From positions 1 through 9,005 of IMG/VR virus record IMGVR_UViG_2734482785_000011: DNA of 9,005 nt; one strand, 5' to 3'. Below the pieces are notes generated by a model that was given only the letters and a program-made list of their open reading frames with translations, made no database searches and was not told where the DNA came from. Shown here piece by piece: positions 1 through 9,005 of the stretch (position 1 is its first letter; each line of letters starts with the position of its first letter). The DNA comes from a virus (Duplodnaviria; Heunggongvirae; Uroviricota; Caudoviricetes). The position numbers and the translations under genes were made by a program.

Positions 1-473
1 CGATAGGTTGCAACACCAGTTGCACGTTGAGTCATGAACACGTCGGTTTGAGTCCAAGTGTCACCACCGAATTCTGGCAGGACGTCAGTCCACGCACCGA
101 TGTCGTATGCTACACCGTAGTTACGGCCGTAATCGATGGAGCCGTAGTCACCGAATTTCAGGCCAGCGAAGGCAAGACGGGTTTTGTCTTTGGAGGAACC
201 CTGAGATTCAGCGCGGTTGCCTTTGAATTCATATTCCCACTGACCGAAACCAGTCAGTTGATCGTTGATTTGGGTTTCACCTTTGAAGCCAAGACGAGCA
301 TAAGTTTTGTCACCATCGTGCTTATCGTTAGAGGAGAAGTAGTGCTCGGCATTAACTTTTCCATACAGATCCAGTTTGTTGCTGTCTTTGTTATAAATCT
401 CTGCTGCCTGAGCAGACATCGCCATTAATACTGACGCAGCTACAGCAGAGATTGCCACTGTTAATTTTTTCAT
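1..473 (-). CDS. nmpC: General porin of the OmpC/OmpF/PhoE family, N-terminal part only (start codon at 473-471, gene continues past position 1); NmpC/OmpD/Lc-type prophage porin
   Basis: Reverse-complement translation from the ATG at 473-471 gives [48 protein letters not shown]...[25 protein letters not shown]...[59 protein letters not shown]: signal peptide followed by the AEIYNKD mature N-terminus and conserved porin blocks. AGGA Shine-Dalgarno about 8 nt upstream on the minus strand. Symbol assigned from recalled similarity to NmpC, not from a search. Confidence 0.85.
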
Positions 474-716
474 CGTGAATCCTTAGTCCTTTTCGGAACT
501 ATTATTAAAAAATATTGTCACTGCGGCCTAAATATACATCTAATCGGTATGGCTATTTCAAGATACGGGGTTTATTTAATGATTTAGAGTGTGATCAAGA
601 TCTCGTTTATGCGTGGTAATAATTATTGGAGATGTTTTTGTAATGAGAGATGTGTTTCTGAAATGCAATGAAAAGTTATTATTTTTGTATTTTATAATGT
701 AAATTTTGCGTACTGG

Positions 717-730
717 TTTACGTACGTAAA
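717..730. promoter_or_regulatory. Perfect 14-bp palindrome TTTACGTACGTAAA in the divergent porin/small-ORF intergenic region; candidate operator for a dimeric regulator
   Basis: Sequence is its own reverse complement; it lies in a 450 bp AT-rich region between divergently oriented genes, next to a TATAAT hexamer at 693-698. Confidence 0.3.
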
Positions 731-923
731 AATTTAAATATGATGTTAAGAGTGGTCACTTTGCCACACAGCTTAAACCAGCCGCCAAGCGGGGTTTTTT
801 ATGCCCGAAAAGCGGCGCAGTACGTTAAACGCGCTGGTGGTTGCGAATACAGGTCTTTCAGCTTGATGGCTTTTTCGACAAGAGTTATTGGTATGTCACG
901 TTAACCAGAAAAGGGAAAAAGAC

Positions 924-1121
924 ATGCTAAAACAGCAGGATATGACCGAAACTGCCAGAGTGGTGTTTAATGAATTAAGCGTCACCGAACCGGCGACCGT
1001 CGGGGAAATTGCGCAGAATACTTACCTTTCACGCGAACGCTGCCAGTTAATACTGACCCAGCTTGTTATGGCGGGTCTGGCAGATTATCAGTTCGGTTGT
1101 TACAGACGCCTTCCTCAGTGA
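924..1121 (+). CDS. Small hypothetical protein (65 aa) with winged-helix/HTH-like character; alternative TTG start at 888
   Basis: ORF track 888..1121; the ATG at 924 is preceded by AGGGA about 7 nt upstream. Translation MLKQQDMTETARVVFNELSVTEPATVGEIAQNTYLSRERCQLILTQLVMAGLADY has an HTH-like segment (TVGEIAQNTYLSRERCQLIL). The stop codon sits inside a terminator hairpin. Confidence 0.5.
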   Translation: MLKQQDMTETARVVFNELSVTEPATVGEIAQNTYLSRERCQLILTQLVMAGLADYQFGCYRRLPQ

Positions 1122-1131
1122 AGGCTTTTTT
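1108..1131 (+). terminator. Rho-independent terminator (stem GCCTTC/GAAGGC, 6-nt loop, T6 tract) ending the small ORF transcript
   Basis: gccttc ctcagt gaaggc tttttt read directly; it overlaps the TGA stop at 1119-1121. Confidence 0.6.
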
Positions 1132-1271
1132 ATTTGTGGTAATGGGCGGCTGGTGGGTGTTAGCGGCACCTGCCAGCCATCTGCTCATGCGTTGGGGTCA
1201 CAAGCAAACCTCAGGCCCATCTGCTTTGCGCAAAAGCGGAATGAGCCTATCAGAGAAGTGCTTATTGATCT

Positions 1272-2318
1272 ATGGCTAATACTGTAAAAATATCCAGTTG
1301 TGAGTTAATCAACGCTGATTGCCTGGAATTTATCCAGACCTTACCGGAAAACTCTGTCGATCTGATAGTCACGGACCCGCCATACTTTAAAGTGAAGCCC
1401 GAGGGCTGGGATAACCAGTGGAAGGGCGACGATGATTATCTGAAATGGCTGGACCAGTGTCTGGCGCAGTTCTGGCGGGTACTGAAGCCTGCCGGAAGTC
1501 TCTACCTGTTCTGTGGTCATCGCCTGGCATCTGATATCGAAATCATGATGCGTGAGCGCTTTAATGTGCTGAACCACATTATCTGGGCGAAGCCGTCCGG
1601 ACGCTGGAACGGGTGCAACAAGGAAAGCCTTCGGGCGTATTTTCCGGCAACAGAACGCATTCTGTTTGCTGAACATTATCAGGGGCCATATCAGCCCAAA
1701 AATGACGGCTACGCGGCAAAGGGGCGCGAGCTTAAGCAGCACATCATGGCCCCGCTGATTTCTTACTTCCGTGATGCGCGTGAATCACTGGGGATAACGT
1801 CGAAACAGATAGCAGAAGCCACCGGAAAGAAAAACATGGCTTCGCACTGGTTTGGTACCAGTCAGTGGCAGTTACCGAACGAAGCTGATTACAGAAAACT
1901 GCAGGCGTTGTTTGCGCGTATTGCAGCAGAAAAACATCAACGCGGGGAACTGGAAAAGCCACACCACCAGCTGGTCAGCATATATAGTGAACTGAACCGG
2001 CAATATGCCAGCCTGCTGGATGAGTACAAATCTCTGCGGCGTTATTTTTCCGTATCGGCTGCCGTTCCGTATACGGATGTCTGGACGCACAAGCCTGTGC
2101 CGTATTACCCCGGCAAACATCCCTGTGAGAAACCGGCGGATATGTTGCGTCAGATAATTACCGCCAGCAGTCGTCCGGGAGATTTGGTGGCTGATTTTTT
2201 TATGGGGTCAGGCTCAACAATAAAAGCGGCACTTTCACTGGGACGCTGTGCGATTGGCGTGGAGCTGGAAGAAGAGAGATTTAATCAGACTGTGAACGAA
2301 ATAAAAAACTGCTGTTAA
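1272..2318 (+). CDS. DNA methyltransferase, beta-class amino-MTase (probably N6-adenine; N4-cytosine not excluded), 348 aa, no restriction partner in the window
   Basis: DPPY catalytic motif (motif IV) near the N-terminus (LIVTDPPYF) and an FxGxG AdoMet-binding motif (motif I) near the C-terminus (DFFMGSGST). The IV-before-I order defines the beta class. Single ATG start at 1272 (in-frame TGA stop at 1266-1268 just upstream); weak Shine-Dalgarno. Confidence 0.9.
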   Translation: MANTVKISSCELINADCLEFIQTLPENSVDLIVTDPPYFKVKPEGWDNQWKGDDDYLKWLDQCLAQFWRVLKPAGSLYLFCGHRLASDIEIMMRERFNVLNHIIWAKPSGRWNGCNKESLRAYFPATERILFAEHYQGPYQPKNDGYAAKGRELKQHIMAPLISYFRDARESLGITSKQIAEATGKKNMASHWFGTSQWQLPNEADYRKLQALFARIAAEKHQRGELEKPHHQLVSIYSELNRQYASLLDEYKSLRRYFSVSAAVPYTDVWTHKPVPYYPGKHPCEKPADMLRQIITASSRPGDLVADFFMGSGSTIKAALSLGRCAIGVELEEERFNQTVNEIKNCC

Positions 2319-2832
2319 TTTTTATGTTGGTGTTTTCTTTATTCTATAAAAACACAAAACATATACTTATATTTGCAGTAATTGACGCTATTTTTTGTTG
2401 AAAAAATATCCGGGCTTATTAATATCCATTCCCGGTTCCGAGGGAGAATAGGGAAATAATGCATACGTGGTCGTTTTGTTCCTCCTGAGGAACCACTGAC
2501 TAAGCTTTTTATCGTTGTGGCACTGGCGCATTGTTTTTGGCGAGGAAACAGGAGCACATGCTCATTCCGGGCTGTTATGGCCTCAGTGCTTATTTTTGGC
2601 CATCAGAATGGCGCATTGTCGAAAAGAAGTAGCAGGATTTAGCGTTGAGAGGCTGATGATGCGTCATTCTGATGCTGTTGCAGATATAATTTGAGGTGTA
2701 TCCCAGTGCGGGAGTGGCCGGGAATATTTTACGCCGAAGGTCACAACATATTGCTTATTGAGGCAGGTGATATGTTTCGGGAGGCACCCGACACCTCAAA
2801 CCTTATAATGATAGCGTGTTCTTTTAGTCATT

Positions 2833-2857
2833 AACCGCCGTGTCAGGCGGTTTTTTT
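2833..2857 (+). terminator. Strong rho-independent terminator (stem AACCGCC/GGCGGTT, loop GTGTCA, T7 tract); candidate late-operon terminator (tR'-like) or 3' end of an untranslated leader/sRNA
   Basis: aaccgcc gtgtca ggcggtt ttttt read directly. No plus-strand ORF of 60 aa or more in the 500 bp upstream. Confidence 0.6.
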
Positions 2858-3094
2858 ACGCAGCGGTATAAAAATATCATATTTAATAATTTCCAGAGAA
2901 ATAAAATTGTTTGTATATTGTCGGGCATGTGTTACTCGTGCGTGAAAAGTTCGCAAAAAATAAGAACAAAAAGATAAAGTTACATAACTTGACTTGATGC
3001 GTTATTGCTCCTGCATCATTTAACCGTATTATCAAAGGCGGTTCTGAGGGGGGGCACCTGTTCACCGATGATATTGATTCCCTGAAGAACCAAT

Positions 3095-3170
<76 letters not shown>

Positions 3171-3173
3171 TAT

Positions 3174-3248
<75 letters not shown>

Positions 3249-3609
3249 ACAGTAGACGAAATCTGGTTATATTAGGCACTGCACATTGATATGTGGGGCG
3301 TTTTCCTGATTCCTTACCGCGTCCTGTTCTGTAATATGTGATGCAGGTTACAGTCCAGTGCCATTTTTTTACAATAATGGCATGGTGCATTGTCGGTGGA
3401 GATTTTGTATTTCCTGGCAGGGGCCGATGATGCACTATCCCTGTGTTGTAAAATAATACCGCAGAGGTGTTCCTCAGTGCGAGGTGGAGGGAAGAGTCGG
3501 TTTAGCGAGAAAACACAGTACCTGTTATCAGGTCAGATATTTCGGGAGTCCTCCCCTGACACCTTTGTTTTATTACAATAAAAATACCCTATTTTCTGCA
3601 TTGACCAGC

Positions 3610-3630
3610 CGCCACCCAGGCGTTTTTTTT
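3610..3630 (+). terminator. Weak terminator-like hairpin (CGCC/GGCG, 5-nt loop) followed by a T8 tract
   Basis: cgcc accca ggcg tttttttt read directly; the short stem makes this the weakest of the stacked terminators. Confidence 0.35.
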
Positions 3631-3652
3631 ATTCACAATCCTGTTTCTTATG

Positions 3653-3673
3653 GCTCGCTACGGCGAGCTTTTT
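3653..3673 (+). terminator. Rho-independent terminator (stem GCTCGC/GCGAGC, loop TACG, T5 tract)
   Basis: gctcgc tacg gcgagc ttttt read directly. Confidence 0.5.
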
Positions 3674-3760
3674 CATATCTGCGTCACGTCCGGCGTACAT
3701 CGCATCAGATAACACCACACAAAAGGCATCTGCGGGTGTCTTTGACGGGGTGTTTTTTAC

Positions 3761-3782
3761 GGGCCGCTGGTGGCCCTTTTTT
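3761..3782 (+). terminator. Rho-independent terminator (stem GGGCC/GGCCC, loop GCTGGT, T6 tract) about 20 nt upstream of the holin-like gene start
   Basis: gggcc gctggt ggccc tttttt read directly; followed by AGGAG and the ATG at 3802. Confidence 0.6.
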
Positions 3783-3801
3783 ATTTACAGGAGAAAAAAG
3801 T

Positions 3802-4194
3802 ATGTCTGAACCCTTGTCCGGTTCCGGCACGGCTGCGGCGCTCGGCGGGGCGACGGTATTCGGGCTGTTTACCGGAACGGATTTCGGGATTGTGTTTGGT
3901 GCGTTCGCCGGAGCGTTATTTGTGGCAACGATGCCGCAGCAGCTTTCAGCCTGGCGTGTGGCGGCACATTTTCTGGTGTCGTTCATTGTCGGTGTGCTGG
4001 GCGCAGAGGTTCTGGCATCCTGGCTGGTAAAGCATACAGGGTTTGACGGTGCGCCTGTCGACGCACTGTGTGCAGTGCTGGTGTCAGTGGTGTCGGTGAA
4101 GATTCTCTCGTTCATCCACCAGCAGGATATTGCATCACTGGTGTCTGGCCTGTTCTCCCGCCTGCGGGGTGGAGGAGGCGGCAATGTTAAGTAA
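3802..4194 (+). CDS. Putative holin (130 aa, 3-4 predicted transmembrane helices), first gene of the lysis cassette
   Basis: ATG at 3802 preceded by AGGAG at an appropriate spacing. The ORF-track entry 3484..4194 is the same frame with a spurious N-terminal extension. Product MSEPLSGSGTAAALGGATVFGLFTG...VLGAEVLASWLV...ALCAVLVSVVSVKILSF is strongly hydrophobic with a short charged C-terminus, and sits immediately upstream of an endolysin. Confidence 0.6.
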   Translation: MSEPLSGSGTAAALGGATVFGLFTGTDFGIVFGAFAGALFVATMPQQLSAWRVAAHFLVSFIVGVLGAEVLASWLVKHTGFDGAPVDALCAVLVSVVSVKILSFIHQQDIASLVSGLFSRLRGGGGGNVK

Positions 4195-4462
4195 CCTTCC
4201 CGGATTACTGAATGTGGCGTTATGCACGGTTATCGTGCTGACGCTCTTTTTTTATCGTCGCCGTGATTCCAGACATAAACCGCTGATGTCATGGCTGGCC
4301 TGGCTGCTGATGCTGCTGTATGCCTTTGCGCCCCTCAGCTATCTGTGTGGTCGCCCGTTAGCAACGGGCTGGCTGGAAGTGTTTTTTAATCTGCTGTTCT
4401 GCGTGCTGGTGATACGCGCACGCGGGAACGTCACAAAAATCTTTCCATTGTTGAGGCACTGA
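4184..4462 (+). CDS. Small membrane protein (92 aa, 2-3 transmembrane helices); putative second holin, antiholin or lysis-associated protein
   Basis: ATG at 4184 preceded by GGAGGAGG; overlaps the stop of the upstream gene (4192-4194) and ends 1 nt before the endolysin ATG, indicating translational coupling. Product MLSNLPGLLNVALCTVIVLTLFFYRRRDSRHKPLMSWLAWLLMLLYAFAPLSYL... The ORF-track TTG start at 4130 is rejected in favour of the ATG. Confidence 0.55.
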   Translation: MLSNLPGLLNVALCTVIVLTLFFYRRRDSRHKPLMSWLAWLLMLLYAFAPLSYLCGRPLATGWLEVFFNLLFCVLVIRARGNVTKIFPLLRH

Positions 4463-4463
4463 G

Positions 4464-5009
4464 ATGAAATCAAAGGACGTCATTTTTGATGAAATCCTCG
4501 GAAAAGAGGGTGGCTACGTCAATCATCCGGATGATAAAGGCGGGCCGACAAAATGGGGTATTACGGAAAAAGTCGCTCGCGCTCACGGATATCGCGGCGA
4601 TATGCGCGACCTTACACGCGGTCAGGCGCTGGAAATACTCGAGGCGGATTACTGGTTCGGACCACGTTTTGACCAGGTCGCCGCATTATCCCCTGATATT
4701 GCTGCAGAGTTGTGTGATACCGGTGTGAATATGGGGCCGTCCGTAGCATCGAAAATGCTCCAGCGCTGGCTGAACGTTTTCAACCTGCAAGGCAAATTGT
4801 TCCCGGATATGGACGCAGACGGGCGTATCGGCCCCCGCACGATTAATGCACTACGGACTTATCTGCAAAAACGCGGCAAAGACGGCGAACTGGTGATGCT
4901 GAAGGCGCTGAATTGCACGCAGGGTGACCGCTATCTGGAGCTGGCAGAAAAACGCGAGGCCAACGAGTCGTTTGTCTACGGCTGGATGAAAGAGCGCGTA
5001 GCAGTTTAA
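4464..5009 (+). CDS. Endolysin, glycoside hydrolase family 108-type N-terminal domain with a C-terminal peptidoglycan-binding domain (181 aa), no signal peptide
   Basis: N-terminal motif ILGKEGGYVNHPDDKGGPTKWGIT matches the GH108 signature (EGGY catalytic region). C-terminal half (RIGPRTINALRTYLQ...) resembles PG_binding_3 domains. GAGG Shine-Dalgarno 7 nt upstream. Confidence 0.9.
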   Translation: MKSKDVIFDEILGKEGGYVNHPDDKGGPTKWGITEKVARAHGYRGDMRDLTRGQALEILEADYWFGPRFDQVAALSPDIAAELCDTGVNMGPSVASKMLQRWLNVFNLQGKLFPDMDADGRIGPRTINALRTYLQKRGKDGELVMLKALNCTQGDRYLELAEKREANESFVYGWMKERVAV

Positions 5010-5103
5010 AAACTGACGCTGAAGTGCTGAACACCCTCAACTCATGCTGGCTCTTTTCTGGGGCTACGATGAGCGAAAGTAAGGGGCATAGTATCAGATA
5101 GCA

Positions 5104-5141
5104 AAAACCCCGGCTGCGGTAACAGTCCGGGGTTTTCTGTT
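5104..5141 (+). terminator. Rho-independent terminator after the lysis cassette; perfect 10-bp inverted repeat AAAACCCCGG/CCGGGGTTTT flanked by A- and T-tracts (possibly bidirectional)
   Basis: aaaaccccgg (5104-5113) and ccggggtttt (5127-5136) are exact reverse complements; a T-rich tract follows. Confidence 0.6.
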
Positions 5142-5205
5142 TCTGGCCTTGGGTAAGGCAAAGGAGAACATGAGGAAGTATAAACTAATCCTGTTGAGGT
5201 TGACT

Positions 5206-5352
5206 ATGAAAAACGGCCTTGAATTGAAAGCGCCTGTAACTGATGACATCAGCAGAGCGGTGGCTTTTGCCATTAAGTGGGTGGCGGTTGGCATCGCCGT
5301 GTCTCCGATACTGTATGGGCTGGCAAAATTGATTGTTGCTCTGAAATCGTGA
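5206..5352 (+). CDS. Small single-TM peptide (48 aa), hypothetical; paralog of the 5533..5619 peptide
   Basis: ATG at 5206 with GAGG 6 nt upstream (alternative ATG 5170, TTG 5149). Product MKNGLELKAPVTDDISRAVAFAIKWVAVGIAVSPILYGLAKLIVALKS has a C-terminal hydrophobic helix. Confidence 0.4.
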   Translation: MKNGLELKAPVTDDISRAVAFAIKWVAVGIAVSPILYGLAKLIVALKS

Positions 5353-5532
5353 GTGGTGATGGGTGTCATGAGGGACATGGCAACTGATGATAAAAGCAGA
5401 AACAACTCCGCAGGGTGCTGACGATGCTGCAAAAATCATCGCGGTATGTCGGGGAATCAGGTACATACTGACGCCAGTTGCATGGATTATTTGTACCGCA
5501 CTGGTTGCATACACAACAATTTATTTAAACAG

Positions 5533-5619
5533 ATGAGTGCTGATTTTATTCGGGCGGTGGCTTTTGCCATTCGTCTTGTGGCGGTCGCTGTTCTGATTTG
5601 GGCTGTGCGTTGGTGGTGA
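5533..5619 (+). CDS. Small hydrophobic peptide (28 aa from ATG 5533; 57 aa if started at ATG 5446), paralog of the 5206..5352 peptide; possibly a decayed copy
   Basis: Product MSADFIRAVAFAIRLVAVAVLIWAVRWW shares the core RAVAFAI[KR].VAV with the upstream peptide. The 18-nt run gcggtggcttttgccatt is identical at 5257-5274 and 5554-5571. No clear Shine-Dalgarno. Stop TGA at 5617-5619 lies 1 nt before the next ATG. Confidence 0.3.
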   Translation: MSADFIRAVAFAIRLVAVAVLIWAVRWW

Positions 5620-5620
5620 T

Positions 5621-5803
5621 ATGACGCGAAAACACTGGACACACAGAATGCCGCGAACGGCGGCGAAATGGGCACTGGTAGCGATACTGGTGCCTTTTTT
5701 ATTGGTGGGATGCGTCAGTCTGGATAAGGCGCGCCAGCTTTTCGGTACAGCTTCTCAGGTCTGCGAAATTGTTGATAGTGTCCGGCAGTGTATGCAGAAC
5801 TGA
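5621..5803 (+). CDS. Small lipoprotein (60 aa precursor; lipobox LVGC; mature part about 30 aa with three cysteines); alternative start ATG 5648
   Basis: Product MTRKHWTHRMPRTAAKWALVAILVPFLLVGCVSLDKARQLFGTASQVCEIVDSVRQCMQN: positively charged n-region, hydrophobic core, L-V-G-C lipobox. Confidence 0.5.
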   Translation: MTRKHWTHRMPRTAAKWALVAILVPFLLVGCVSLDKARQLFGTASQVCEIVDSVRQCMQN

Positions 5804-5846
5804 CCGACGGTGAGAGCAGAATATTTTTTTAGAGGAGCGAAATTCT

Positions 5847-6197
5847 ATGCCATCACGAATCCCACACGCCTGCCGTAAGCGTGGATGTGCAGGTACAACC
5901 ACAGACAGTTCTGGTTACTGCGATAAACATCGTGGCGAAGGATGGGTACAGCATCAACGCGGACTGAGCCGCCACCAGCGTGGCTATGGCTCGAAATGGG
6001 ATGCCATACGTGCGCGCATACTGAAGCGTGATAATCATCTGTGTCAGAACTGCCTGCGCAATGGGATAGCCGTTGAAGCCAGAACTGTGGACCACATCAT
6101 CCCGAAAGCGCATGGTGGAACAGACGCAGACAGTAACCTGCAGAGTCTGTGCTGGCCCTGCCATAAAGCAAAAACAGCGCGCGAACGCATCAATTGA
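5847..6197 (+). CDS. HNH homing-type endonuclease (116 aa), the packaging-associated HNH protein of HK97-like phages
   Basis: GAGGAG Shine-Dalgarno 9 nt upstream of the ATG at 5847. HNH motif ...TVDHIIPKAHGGTDADSNLQSLCWPCHKAKT plus N-terminal Cys-rich segment CRKRGCAGTTTDSSGYCDKH. Sits immediately upstream of the terminase genes. Confidence 0.9.
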   Translation: MPSRIPHACRKRGCAGTTTDSSGYCDKHRGEGWVQHQRGLSRHQRGYGSKWDAIRARILKRDNHLCQNCLRNGIAVEARTVDHIIPKAHGGTDADSNLQSLCWPCHKAKTARERIN

Positions 6198-6343
6198 TAA
6201 CAGTTCCCATCTGTAGGGGAGGGGCGGGTCAAATCTCTGCAACCCTGGCTGCTCAGTACCGCCGCCTGACCTTTCCTCGCATCGCCGCAGGTTCGAAAAC
6301 TTTTTTTGGAATGTGATTGAATGATTGATAGGTAAAACCGATT
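6198..6343. other. Probable cos (cohesive end/packaging initiation) region between the HNH gene and the terminase small subunit
   Basis: Position only: in HK97-like phages cos lies between the HNH gene (right genome end) and TerS (left genome end). The 146 bp non-coding interval contains a G-rich segment gtaggggaggggcgggtc. The exact cosN cannot be defined from sequence alone. Confidence 0.3.
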
Positions 6344-6826
6344 ATGTCAGGACCCCCGAAAACCCCGCCACGCCTGCATTTGATACGAGGCAACCCCTCA
6401 AAGCGCCCCGTTAAAGACCCAAAAAAAACCGCTAAAAAGGATGAAAAAGGTCTCCCTAAAATTCCGCAACATTTAGGGTCGCAGGGGAAGTACTGGTTCA
6501 GGCGAATGGCGGAAGAACTGAATGCGGAAGGGATCATTTCTCAGCTTGATGCGCGTGCACTCGAGTTACTGGTGGAAGCCTACACCGAATACCGGCATCA
6601 CTGCGAAACACTTGATGCTGAGGGTTATACCTACCGCACGGAAACGCAGAACGGTGATGTGCTGATTAAGGCACACCCGGCTGCTGCGATGAAAGCGGAT
6701 GCCTGGAAGCGGATCCGGGCGATGCTTGCAGAGTTTGGTATGTCACCGGCAAGCCGGGCTAAAGTAAATACCGCCGGACCGGATGATGTTGATCCGCTGG
6801 CGGAGCTTTTAAAAGCGAGAGACTGA
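6344..6826 (+). CDS. Terminase small subunit, P27 family (160 aa)
   Basis: Product MSGPPKTPPRLHLIRGNPSKRP... with basic N-terminus and conserved LHLIRGNPSKR-type motif typical of P27-family TerS. Its stop overlaps the TerL start (TGATG). Confidence 0.85.
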   Translation: MSGPPKTPPRLHLIRGNPSKRPVKDPKKTAKKDEKGLPKIPQHLGSQGKYWFRRMAEELNAEGIISQLDARALELLVEAYTEYRHHCETLDAEGYTYRTETQNGDVLIKAHPAAAMKADAWKRIRAMLAEFGMSPASRAKVNTAGPDDVDPLAELLKARD

Positions 6827-8583
6827 TGGCAAAAGTGGCTGACGGGATCCGCTACGCCGAACGTGTTGTTGCAGGAGAAATTGTCGCTGGCGAATTTGTC
6901 CGTCTGGCCTGCCAGCGTTTTCTTGATGATCTGAAGTACGGCGAAGAGCGGGGGATTTATTTCAGTGAACCTCGTGCGCAGCACATCCTGAATTTCTACA
7001 AATTTGTGCCCCATGTGAAAGGGGCGCTGGCAGGCCAGCCCATTGAACTGATGGACTGGCATGTATTTATCCTCATTAATATTTTTGGTTTTGTCATTCC
7101 GCTGGTGAATGAAGAGACCGGGGAAGTTGTCATGCGCAGCGATGGCAGCGGACGCCCGGTGATGGTGCGCCGGTTCCGGACGGCGTACAACGAAGTCGCC
7201 CGTAAAAACGCAAAATCAACCCTGTCATCGGGTATCGGTCTGTATATGACGGGGGCAGATGGTGAAGGCGGGGCTGAGGTGTATTCAGCCGCAACCACGC
7301 GTGACCAGGCCAGAATCGTGTTTGAAGACGCCAAAAATATGGTCAGAAAAGCCCGGTCGACACTCGGGCGCTTGTTTGATTTCAACAAGCTGGCGATTTA
7401 CCAGGAGCAGAGCGCATCAAAATTTGAACCGCTTTCCTCGGATGCAAACAACCTGGACGGTCTGAACATCCACTGCGCCATTATTGATGAGCTGCATGCA
7501 CATAAAACCCGCGACGTGTGGGACGTTCTGGAAACGGCAACCGGTGCCCGTCTGCAGTCCCTGTTATTTGGTATCACCACGGCGGGCTTTAACAAGGAAG
7601 GGATTTGTTACGAGCAGCGCGATTACGCCATTAAGGTATTGCGAGGCTATAACAGCGACGTGGAGGGCGCGGTAAAAGACGACTCCTACTTTGCGATCAT
7701 TTACACGCTCGATGAGGGAGATGATCCGTTTGATGAAACGGTCTGGCAGAAAGCGAATCCGGGCCTGGGCATCTGTAAACGCTGGGATGATCTGCGTCGT
7801 CTGGCGAAAAAAGCGAAGGAGCAGGTCTCTGCGCGGGTGAATTTTTTCACAAAACACATGAATGTGTGGGTAACAGCAGAGTCTGCCTGGATGGACATGA
7901 TTAAGTGGGAGAAGTGCGAATACATTGCCCCACGACATGAGCTGAAAACGTATCCCATGTGGGTAGGCGTTGACCTTGCTCATAAGATTGATATCTGTGC
8001 GGCGGCAAAACTCTGGCGAACCGATAACGGGCATGTTCATGCCGATTTTAAATTCTGGCTTCCGGAAGGACGGCTGGAACGATGCTCGCGGCAGCAGGCA
8101 GAACTTTACCGGAAGTGGTCGGAGATGGATAAGCTGATTCTGACGGATGGTGATGTTATCGATCATGCTCAGATAAAAAGTGACTTACTGGAATGGATTG
8201 GCGGTGAAAACCTCAGGGAACTGGGATTTGACCCGTGGAGCGCGATGCAGTTCAGCCTGGCACTGGCTGAAGAAGGGATACCGCTGGTGGAGGTTCCGCA
8301 GACGGTCCGCAATCTGTCAGAGGCCATGAAGGAAACGGAATCACTGGTCTATGCCGGGCGTTTCCATCACAGCAATCATCCGGTCATGAACTGGATGATG
8401 TCTAACGTTACGGTAAAACCGGACAAAAACGACAACATCTTCCCGAATAAATCCACGCCTGAAGCCAAAATCGACGGCCCTGTTGCGATGTTTACAGCAA
8501 TGAGCCGGATGCTGGTCAATGGCGGTGAACCGGAGCCGGATCTGTCTGAACACCTGATCAGTGTTGGTATCCGCTCGCTTTAA
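6826..8583 (+). CDS. Terminase large subunit (585 aa), Terminase_1 / HK97-like family
   Basis: ATPase-domain blocks [18 protein letters not shown] and [21 protein letters not shown], and DELH (Walker B-like) in [18 protein letters not shown]; size and position between TerS and portal. Confidence 0.95.
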
Positions 8584-8594
8584 CCGAGGGCATT

Positions 8595-8777
8595 ATGTTT
8601 CTGATAATTCTCACGCCACTGGTGGGCGTGCTGGGGGCGCTTTTGCTGTCGTATGGCACATGGCTGATTTATCCCCCGGCAGGTTTTGTTGTTGCCGGGG
8701 CGCTGTGTCTGTGCTGGTCGTGGCTGGTTGCGCGTTATCTCGATCGCGGTCACCGGGTTGCCTCCGGAGGTGAGTAA
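8595..8777 (+). CDS. Small membrane protein (60 aa, two predicted TM helices) between TerL and portal; hypothetical
   Basis: ATG at 8595 with GAGGG 4-5 nt upstream; product [60 protein letters not shown]. Its TAA stop overlaps the portal ATG (TAATG at 8775-8779). Confidence 0.45.
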
Positions 8778-9005
8778 TGTTTTTCCTGGGGCTTTTTCAA
8801 CGCAAAAATAACACCCCCGTCACAACGCCCGGGATGCTTGCGGAAGAACTTGGATTGTCATACGACACCTATACCGGAAAGCGGATCAGCAGCCAGCGGG
8901 CCATGCGGCTGACGGCGGTGTATTCCTGCGTCAGGGTGCTGGCGGAGTCTGTTGGTATGCTGCCCTGCAGCCTCTACAAAATCACCGGCACCCTTAAAAC
9001 ACGGG
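8777..9005 (+). CDS. Portal protein, HK97 family, N-terminal part (gene continues beyond the window end)
   Basis: Translation [71 protein letters not shown]... matches the conserved N-terminal region of HK97-type portals (AMRLxAVYxCVRxLxESVxxLP). Confidence 0.85.
   Translation, partial: MFFLGLFQRKNNTPVTTPGMLAEELGLSYDTYTGKRISSQRAMRLTAVYSCVRVLAESVGMLPCSLYKITGTLKTR

Follow-up and report, generated by a model that had tools for sequence, protein, structure and literature searches.

What takes the place of the spanin in a lysis cassette that holds no Rz/Rz1 genes? The question is raised by a stretch of 9,005 nucleotides from a tailed phage (Caudoviricetes; IMG/VR record IMGVR_UViG_2734482785_000011, positions 1 to 9,005; here called the window), whose gene content is that of a phiP27-like enterobacterial prophage. 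Between the endolysin and the HNH endonuclease genes of the window no Rz/Rz1 is present, as had been noted in an initial annotation made from the letters alone. On balance, we lean towards reading this interval as the distal end of a phiP27-type late lysis cassette, in which a partner-less outer-membrane lysis lipoprotein replaces the spanin and is preceded by three accessory genes for late membrane peptides. Judged by substitution patterns and homology, the interval carries four coding units, one of which includes a patch of converted sequence:

5206..5352, plus strand: ORF1, a predicted single-pass membrane peptide with a core of 48 amino acids (phrog_1115, E = 5.1e-44, positions 2-67 of 67)
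5387..5536, plus strand: p49, a predicted membrane peptide gene of 49 amino acids, in another frame and missed by the initial annotation (substitution pattern)
5533..5619, plus strand: p28, a 28-amino-acid mini-paralog of ORF1 that is essentially a bare membrane span (MSADFIRAVAFAIRLVAVAVLIWAVRWW; substitution pattern, PHROG match)
5554..5571, plus strand: putative gene-conversion patch, 18 nucleotides identical to ORF1 5257-5274, seen in the window only
5621..5803, plus strand: lipoprotein precursor of 60 amino acids, the constant last gene of the lysis cassette (phrog_7528, E = 1.4e-37, positions 1-60 of 60)

About 250 related loci (254) were retrieved for comparison, and synonymous and non-synonymous substitutions were counted per frame on distinct sequences; the loci were fetched with these same proteins as bait and are redundant, so that the locus counts given below are not frequencies. 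The lipoprotein gene lies downstream of an endolysin gene in all of the 191 loci that hold it. The endolysin ahead of it is a glycoside hydrolase 108 (GH108) enzyme or an M15 peptidase, and the lipoprotein is the constant element across the loci. We directly observe mutual exclusion with Rz/Rz1: an intact lipoprotein gene alone is found in 191 loci, Rz alone in 51, and both together in none. In 27 distinct Escherichia coli cassettes the lipoprotein gene directly adjoins the endolysin gene or overlaps it; the two genes likewise follow each other directly in Yersinia enterocolitica and Y. kristensenii, with an ATGA overlap. A hydrophobic open reading frame (ORF) within 900 nucleotides downstream is absent from 14 of these 27 direct cassettes, and the rest have only antisense or out-of-frame ones. 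One locus (L001) has a GH24 endolysin followed by ORFs without assignment and a truncated lipoprotein gene. The possibility of a non-canonical envelope-disruption function, raised at the outset, gains from these findings, as the lipoprotein occupies the exact slot of Rz/Rz1 and is coupled to the endolysin gene in many relatives.

The lipoprotein precursor begins with a charged n-region (MTRKHWTHRMPRTAAKW), which is followed by a hydrophobic region and, in the lipobox scan, by the lipobox LVGC with Cys31 encoded at 5711-5713. Its mature part has 30 amino acids, three cysteines, no proline and a net charge of 0; lipobox, length and cysteine count are as first described. Over 5621-5800 the lipoprotein frame shows 51 synonymous to 67 non-synonymous substitutions, compared with 20:98 and 29:89 in the other frames. 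The lipoprotein family, phrog_7528, is a narrow one: 1.8 billion proteins yield 151 clusters at 90% identity and 25 representatives at 50%, and the homologs with a named source belong to E. coli, Salmonella, Citrobacter, Cronobacter and Yersinia. Met1, R3, H5, T7, H8, R9, P11 and the hydrophobic region are invariant in the family alignment, as are G30, C31 and C48, with C57 almost so (G30 and the three cysteines at 90% or more); Met10 is not conserved. Across genera, the mature peptide is less conserved than the 17-amino-acid positively charged n-region (5621-5671; M.RKHWTHR.PR). The +2 residue after the lipobox cysteine is V, A, T, G, S or E across the homologs and never D, and because Asp does not occur at this position the lipoprotein is predicted to sort to the outer membrane. 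No hydrophobic segment follows Cys31, as one would in a unimolecular spanin of the T1 gp11 type, and only 29 further residues remain before the C-terminus. Mimicry of Braun's lipoprotein Lpp by the mature part, an idea prompted by a matching heptad register seen by eye, was dropped, as there is no Pfam LPP match and a conserved Asp-Gly lies between the two cysteines. A terminator-like hairpin within the signal-peptide codons (5670-5695, with a T-run to 5705; -19 kcal/mol, z = -3.4) may be a chance product of the Leu/Phe-rich coding sequence or an attenuator. An unannotated lipoprotein gene with 92% protein identity also occurs in Actinobacillus phage vB_Apl-pPE4 (PP818812.1, 20079-20258), whose host assignment looks odd.

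The comparison also indicates that the lipoprotein is known already, both as a sequence and as a suspected lysis gene. The spanin survey of Kongari et al. 2018 (PMC6139136) listed phiP27 as a "separated" two-component spanin, both members being singletons, with the o-spanin at 20706-20861 and a 64-amino-acid ORF at 20348-20542 as the i-spanin; with 62 periplasmic residues in total, it was the shortest spanin system of their survey. The catalogued o-spanin is the lipoprotein begun at an inner, non-conserved Met (20706). The conserved lipoprotein frame in phiP27 (loci L003 and L244) spans 20679-20861 and is unannotated, and the GenBank CDS L32 (20630-20785) lies in a different frame. The catalogued i-spanin ORF has a TTG start and is found in no other locus of the set. 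With this ORF confined to phiP27 and many cassettes lacking any membrane gene near the lipoprotein, the loci compared do not support the two-component interpretation. The whole genome of phiP27 contains only two lipobox ORFs and offers no other candidate lysis lipoprotein. In the literature, we found no paper on the phiP27 lipoprotein later than this survey, and searches with accession numbers returned nothing.

From these observations we infer where the products of the interval may be localized, what they may do in lysis and by what mechanism. The lipoprotein would leave the cytoplasm by the Sec route, receive its lipid at Cys31 and be sorted to the outer membrane, and would take the slot held by Rz/Rz1 in lambdoid cassettes, as the outer-membrane step. 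It may weaken or rupture the outer membrane alone once the endolysin has removed the wall; action on its own is suggested by the lack of a conserved inner-membrane partner and by a mature part of only 30 residues. This mode would be closer to that of a lipid-anchored disruptin or a colicin-release lipoprotein than to that of a membrane-fusing spanin. ORF1, p49 and p28, chained start-to-stop into the lipoprotein gene and probably expressed late, may modulate lysis at the inner membrane, for example in holin timing or the handling of effectors. This role of the peptides is the weakest step, proposed by analogy with accessory lysis proteins such as Lcc6.

The coding frames of the three peptides can be observed directly in the substitution counts. 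For p49, the frame of ATG 5387 shows 15 synonymous to 4 non-synonymous substitutions over 5387-5532, and the frame chosen in the initial annotation shows 2:17. In that frame the ORF at 5359..5418, the TGA at 5419 and the ATGs at 5446 and 5482 had been taken as the possible remains of a decayed longer gene, and the question had been put whether the TGA is polymorphic among related prophages. The frame contains stops in all nine other sequence variants, so that TGA 5419 is not a polymorphic lesion, and the decayed gene has to be given up. Both the 57-amino-acid ORF 5446..5619 and the ORF 5359..5418 are ruled out as genes by the substitution pattern. Homologs of p49 form 27 clusters in E. coli and Salmonella, with invariant AETT, RG.R and LT..AW motifs. 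The full-length family has about 65 amino acids; the copy in the window is 5'-shortened, begins at an internal Met with stops just upstream, and has no good ribosome-binding site. In one variant (L019/L089) p49 is disrupted by a +1 insertion. It falls outside the PHROG families (best E = 0.066) and is unannotated in the annotated relatives examined (L001, L002 and phiP27). The beginning of the rejected ORF (MRDMATDD..., 5359-5400) may be what is left of the 5' end of a further ORF1-like gene that was fused to p49 at the microhomology ACTGATGA; positions 5238-5256 and 5382-5400 form a repeat (D3, 84%), of which an estimated ~0.03 pairs are expected by chance.

The stop of p49 overlaps the ATG of p28 as ATGA. 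Over 5537-5616 the frame of ATG 5533 shows 13 synonymous to 8 non-synonymous substitutions, and the other frames show 4:17 and 2:19. The region matches the C-terminal half of phrog_4493 (E = 7.4e-7), the gene is annotated by the Prokaryotic Genome Annotation Pipeline (PGAP) in a relative, and in four loci (L200, L201, L203 and L204) the 28-amino-acid ORF stands alone between ORF1 and Rz. ATG 5206 of ORF1, ATG 5533 and TGA 5617-5619 are all present where they had been placed, as is the lipoprotein ATG (5621), which follows that stop after a single base; the lipoprotein gene, which had been called overlapping, abuts the 28-amino-acid ORF without overlap.

For ORF1, the counts over 5206-5352 are 25 synonymous to 14 non-synonymous, and 10:28 and 3:36 in the other frames. 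An optional in-frame ATG upstream at 5170, with AAGGAG, would add 12 amino acids and give the 60-amino-acid form called by PGAP; the added segment (5170-5205) shows 3:6, a small count. The Met at 5206 is kept in all ORF1 homologs and in a 47-amino-acid Salmonella paralog, and the upstream part varies non-conservatively and is variable in Salmonella. On these comparisons the core of ORF1 is 48 amino acids, perhaps with a 60-amino-acid isoform. The longer form had first been favored for a KYK/LRL similarity to the paralog and was downgraded because this similarity is identical at the DNA level, holds the GAGG ribosome-binding site of ATG 5206, and is lost in the Salmonella homologs. A relationship of ORF1 to the holin of the same cassette was also considered and rejected, as BLASTP gave no alignment.

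ORF1 and p28 are paralogs. The full-length relative of p28, a 57-amino-acid ORF of the phrog_4493 type that is common in related cassettes, matches ORF1 with 40% identity over 47 amino acids (BLASTP, E = 9e-13). In the window, an 18-nucleotide block (GCGGTGGCTTTTGCCATT) occurs exactly twice, at 5257-5274 and 5554-5571, and an 8-nucleotide block (GTGGCGGT) recurs at 5281-5288 and 5578-5585; none of 200 shuffles gave any match. Both the blocks and the suggestion of a duplication or gene conversion drawn from them thus stand, with the conversion confined to the window. In p28 alleles elsewhere (~30 loci, 8 distinct sequences) the corresponding sequence is GCAACGGCCTTTGCAAT(T/C) or GCTACAGCC..., with 5 of the 18 bases different even where ORF1 is adjacent. 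This restriction of the identity to the window indicates a recent, short conversion patch of 13-18 nucleotides between the tandem paralogs, with ORF1 as the donor. Hybrid genes with their joint inside the 18-nucleotide block (L106, L092/L103 and P0242) suggest that the block is a recurrent recombination joint.

The initial annotation could not place the two peptides or the lipoprotein in a family and proposed profile searches. These give PHROG matches for ORF1, the p28 region and the lipoprotein, and the phiP27 lipoprotein was already catalogued; the families all carry the label "unknown function" (phrog_1115, phrog_4493 and phrog_3246 for ORF1 and p28, phrog_4906 for an alternative 44-amino-acid peptide, and phrog_7528 for the lipoprotein). 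Pfam, NCBIfam and PADLOC scans of all peptides of the interval returned no match, Pfam holin families did not match ORF1, p49 or p28, and a PDB profile search gave only spurious matches, including a designed repeat protein. Each of the three peptides has one hydrophobic stretch of 17-29 amino acids, broken by a Lys or Arg residue, with an acidic tail on the N-terminal side and a basic one on the C-terminal side; all three are located in the lysis cassette, ORF1 with two in-frame starts (5170 and 5206).

The small membrane genes are optional and highly mosaic, with zero to three of them between the endolysin and the lipoprotein genes. In lambdoid prophages with lysozymes of the signal-anchor-release (SAR) type, the same genes lie between the endolysin and Rz/Rz1, and they end with the same TGGTGGTGATATG junction onto either the Rz start or the lipoprotein. 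They also precede DUF1353 genes, and the three genes of the window can no longer be regarded as an obligatory set. In Salmonella prophages (L245 2501-3009, L253 2356-3067 and L251 2501-2701), ORF1-like and p49-like genes follow tail-fibre genes, in one case as a tandem pair of 47 and 55 amino acids. In L245 and L253 these genes are start-stop coupled to a DUF1353 gene; L251 has an ORF1-like gene, then an 81-amino-acid ORF to which no function is assigned, and no DUF1353 gene there. DUF1353 is the family of TtaP, the phospholipase A2 of the typhoid toxin islet (PMC11525133), and is labelled "tail assembly chaperone" in PHROGs. Taken together, the Rz/Rz1, lipoprotein and DUF1353 contexts suggest that the peptides precede three kinds of envelope-active genes. 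In a lambdoid prophage (L218 857-1426), an antirepressor-like gene of 189 amino acids lies between the endolysin gene and ORF1, which indicates that the gap between endolysin and spanin genes accepts unrelated cargo.

Upstream of the peptides lies a further feature that bears on their expression:

5099..5145, plus strand: terminator-type hairpin followed by a T-rich run (arms AAAACCCCGG and CCGGGGTTTT, 5104-5113 and 5127-5136)

The arms form a 10-nucleotide inverted repeat (I2) with 100% complementarity, and the hairpin at 5104-5136 has a predicted energy of -27.3 kcal/mol (z = -5.1). It lies 33 nucleotides ahead of the first possible start of ORF1 (~25-60 nucleotides from the ORF1 starts). 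The small membrane genes always have such a strong hairpin just ahead of them, with equivalent ones upstream of ORF1 and p49 homologs in lambdoid and Salmonella contexts. Promoter-like sites occur at chance level, with 4 found and 2.8 expected. Because a terminator hairpin lies upstream and leaves no room for a promoter, the small membrane genes would be readable only by antiterminated late transcription. The hairpin and the chance-level promoters fit late-only expression, as far as sequence signals can tell, rather than cargo expressed in the lysogen.

How well does this body of evidence separate the favored reading from other explanations? The lipoprotein and a membrane peptide could form a two-component mini-spanin, with the lipoprotein as o-spanin and either one of the small peptides or the 64-amino-acid TTG ORF of phiP27 as i-spanin, which together would bridge and fuse the membranes. 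Such a pair would agree with the listing of phiP27 in PMC6139136, with the conserved periplasmic cysteines, a feature of many spanins, and with the tight coupling of the genes, and the charge distribution of the peptides would permit an N-out topology with 16-40 periplasmic residues. We nevertheless regard it as improbable. The proposed phiP27 partner is missing from every other locus, no membrane gene adjoins the lipoprotein in the 27 distinct cassettes or in those of Yersinia, and the same peptides precede DUF1353 genes and complete Rz/Rz1 pairs, which have an i-spanin of their own. No conserved i-spanin-like gene is present, the neighboring peptides have essentially no periplasmic domain, and 30 plus ~17 periplasmic residues would be far under any validated spanin, phiP27 being already flagged as the shortest in PMC6139136. 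The genes may instead be non-lysis cargo ("moron" genes) inserted at a permissive site after the endolysin and acting in superinfection exclusion, receptor masking or host fitness, with a Cor-, Llp- or Bor-like lipoprotein and Imm-like peptides. The endolysin-to-spanin gap is a known insertion site, as the antirepressor-like gene in L218 illustrates, the mosaicism is extreme, the peptides are dispensable, and genes of the ORF1 and p49 families are found behind tail-fibre genes, too, at the ends of Salmonella prophages. However, expression in the lysogen is unlikely given the strong terminator immediately upstream and the lack of a detectable promoter. The lipoprotein is linked to holin, holin and endolysin genes in different genera regardless of the downstream module, and beside tail genes it is never encountered; no locus holds both it and Rz/Rz1, an exclusion not expected of independent cargo; and PADLOC gave no match. 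Cargo thus appears unlikely, and the Cor-like receptor blocker considered in the initial annotation loses ground for the same reasons, namely the linkage to holin and endolysin rather than tail genes and the lack of a promoter of its own.

A different objection concerns the peptides: p49 and p28 could be recombination debris, truncated stubs that are still open because they arose recently, with ORF1 and the lipoprotein as the only functional genes. The p49 of the window lacks the conserved N-terminal part of ~16 amino acids, has stops just upstream and no good Shine-Dalgarno sequence, and is frameshifted in one variant; p28 corresponds to the C-terminal half of a 37-57-amino-acid relative; hybrids are frequent; and neither a complete E. 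coli genome nor a phage record contains the exact gene combination. Nevertheless, synonymous changes dominate in both frames, also among truncated alleles, in each of three contexts p28 has kept an ATG of its own and the conserved N-terminus MSA(D/E)(F/L)IR, and the ATGA and TGA-N-ATG couplings are preserved, which makes debris a rather unlikely explanation. Far less probable still is a small membrane toxin in a module resembling a type I toxin-antitoxin system, another suggestion of the initial annotation. The peptides are short and hydrophobic, of the size of Hok, Ldr or Ibs toxins, and two weak promoter-like sites lie on the minus strand within the region. These sites are at chance level, however, no Pfam toxin family or PADLOC system matches, Rfam finds no antitoxin RNA in the window (the best sub-threshold match lies on the terminator hairpin), and the genes are co-oriented and translationally chained in a late operon. 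The reading of the interval as the end of a lysis cassette with a lipoprotein in place of the spanin has points against it as well. A lytic function of the lipoprotein is argued from gene position and exclusion, on loci sampled as described above, and in lambda the bor gene is a lipoprotein gene that adjoins a lysis cassette without serving in lysis. The lipoprotein has no Pfam (E <= 0.1), NCBIfam or PADLOC family match, lacks the cationic character of disruptin and does not match colicin lysis proteins in sequence, and AlphaFold on its alignment gives one long helix at modest confidence (mean predicted local distance difference test score 69). Since the ORF1 and p49 families also follow tail-fibre genes in Salmonella, they are not lysis-specific by position, and the p49 of the window may be a remnant, given its 5' truncation and poor ribosome-binding site.

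The interval is embedded in the following genes:

1272-2318: DNA methylase, upstream of the tRNA genes
3095-3248: tRNA-Thr (TGT) and tRNA-Gly (TCC), between the methylase and the holins, the sole Rfam matches above threshold
3802..4194, plus strand: holin-like gene 1, 130 amino acids, Phage_holin_8 (PF16931, E = 3.9e-23; phrog_198 holin, E = 1.8e-43), first gene of the P27-type lysis cassette
4184..4462, plus strand: holin-like gene 2, 92 amino acids, three predicted membrane spans, Phage_holin_3_7 (PF05449, E = 6.2e-22; phrog_217, E = 6.1e-39)
4464..5009, plus strand: endolysin, 181 amino acids, glycoside hydrolase 108 and PG_binding_3 (PF05838, E = 5.4e-26; PF09374, E = 9.9e-26)
5847-6197: HNH endonuclease, downstream of the lipoprotein gene
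6344-8583: small and large terminase, downstream of the HNH gene

The gene order of the cassette that begins with holin-like gene 1 is identical in Yersinia and E. coli relatives, and phiP27 has antiterminator Q, methylase and tRNA genes upstream of the cassette in the same order as the window. At the site of the window's tRNA genes (3095-3248), phiP27 carries tRNA-Ile, tRNA-Arg and stx2e, the toxin genes being just upstream of its lysis cassette; the window has no toxin genes. In a Yersinia kristensenii prophage (L250 5488-6640), genes with Enterotoxin_a and LT-IIB Pfam domains, similar to those for heat-labile enterotoxin type II (LT-II), lie ~1.8 kb downstream of a cassette of two holin genes, GH108 endolysin and lipoprotein, a placement by the cassette that parallels stx2e in phiP27. 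The window's exact gene combination appears to be a rare mosaic, as no complete E. coli genome or deposited phage covers at least 80% of 5000-5900. A scan of genome contigs with ORF1 as query gave no confirmed locus.

To our knowledge, disruptin is the only spanin alternative demonstrated so far, and it is without a lipid anchor. How spanin-less phages breach the outer membrane was posed as an explicit question in PMC6139136, and the lipoprotein is a concrete candidate for this step in a genetically easy host. It occurs in prophages with Shiga toxin 2e (phiP27) and LT-II-like enterotoxin genes (Yersinia), where lysis governs toxin release. Several records can be corrected: the frame of L32 in phiP27, the start of the catalogued o-spanin, which is wrong, its i-spanin partner, which is doubtful, and the unannotated 49-amino-acid gene. 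A recombining family of mini membrane proteins that moves together with envelope-active genes is defined as well. A more far-reaching proposal, which we put forward only tentatively, is that the lipoprotein may be the founding member of a third class of phage proteins for lysis at the outer membrane, next to spanins and disruptin: a partner-less, lipid-anchored helix of 30 residues that would break the outer membrane with no bridge to the inner one and whose conserved charged signal peptide would serve in timing or action. ORF1, p28 and p49 would then be a general adaptor family, translationally chained ahead of three different envelope-attacking effectors, Rz/Rz1, lipoprotein or DUF1353 phospholipase-A2-like proteins. 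If this were the case, the phiP27-type prophages that rely on it would be those of E. coli, Salmonella, Citrobacter and Yersinia, among them ones with Stx2e and enterotoxin genes.

Colicin lysis or bacteriocin release lipoproteins (Lysis_col) have a mature part of ~28-33 amino acids, permeabilize the envelope, and depend functionally on their signal peptide. The lipoprotein of the window resembles them in size and lipobox, and its signal peptide is more conserved than its mature part; unlike them, it is encoded in a phage late operon rather than a colicin operon and has no Pfam match to PF02402 (Lysis_col) at E <= 0.1. Mu gp25 is reportedly a releasin, a small single-span accessory lysis protein. 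ORF1, p49 and p28 are similar to it, to Lcc6 and to antiholins in that peptides of ~30-65 amino acids with one membrane span are encoded with lysis genes. This likeness is one of description and not of sequence, and the window's peptides differ in being dispensable in many cassettes and in occurring with soluble and SAR endolysins alike and also beside tail-fibre and DUF1353 genes. In the Shewanella phage LambdaSo, Lcc6 works in the inner membrane, at the holin level (bioRxiv 10.1101/2024.01.23.576932), and a study on Mu (PMC9239132) provides a precedent for small single-span accessory lysis proteins. Disruptin (phiKT gp28), as portrayed in its report (bioRxiv 10.1101/515445), is likewise a small single component, with a predicted amphipathic helix, that replaces spanins at the outer membrane in a spanin-less coliphage; it is cationic and similar to an antimicrobial peptide, whereas the lipoprotein is of the Sec/Lsp type with a net charge of 0. 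With Rz1-type o-spanins (lambda Rz/Rz1; PMC6139136) the lipoprotein shares its nature as a small, predicted outer-membrane lipoprotein encoded last in the lysis cassette, behind the endolysin, the conserved periplasmic cysteines, and the slot, in which the two are never found together. It differs from them in having no conserved i-spanin partner, no sequence match to any Rz1 family, and a mature part of 30 amino acids that is Pro-free and predicted to be helical, whereas Rz1 is Pro-rich and unstructured. Compared with its own entry in the spanin catalogue (PMC6139136), the protein begins not at the inner Met but at Met1, with a conserved, charged n-region of 17 amino acids.

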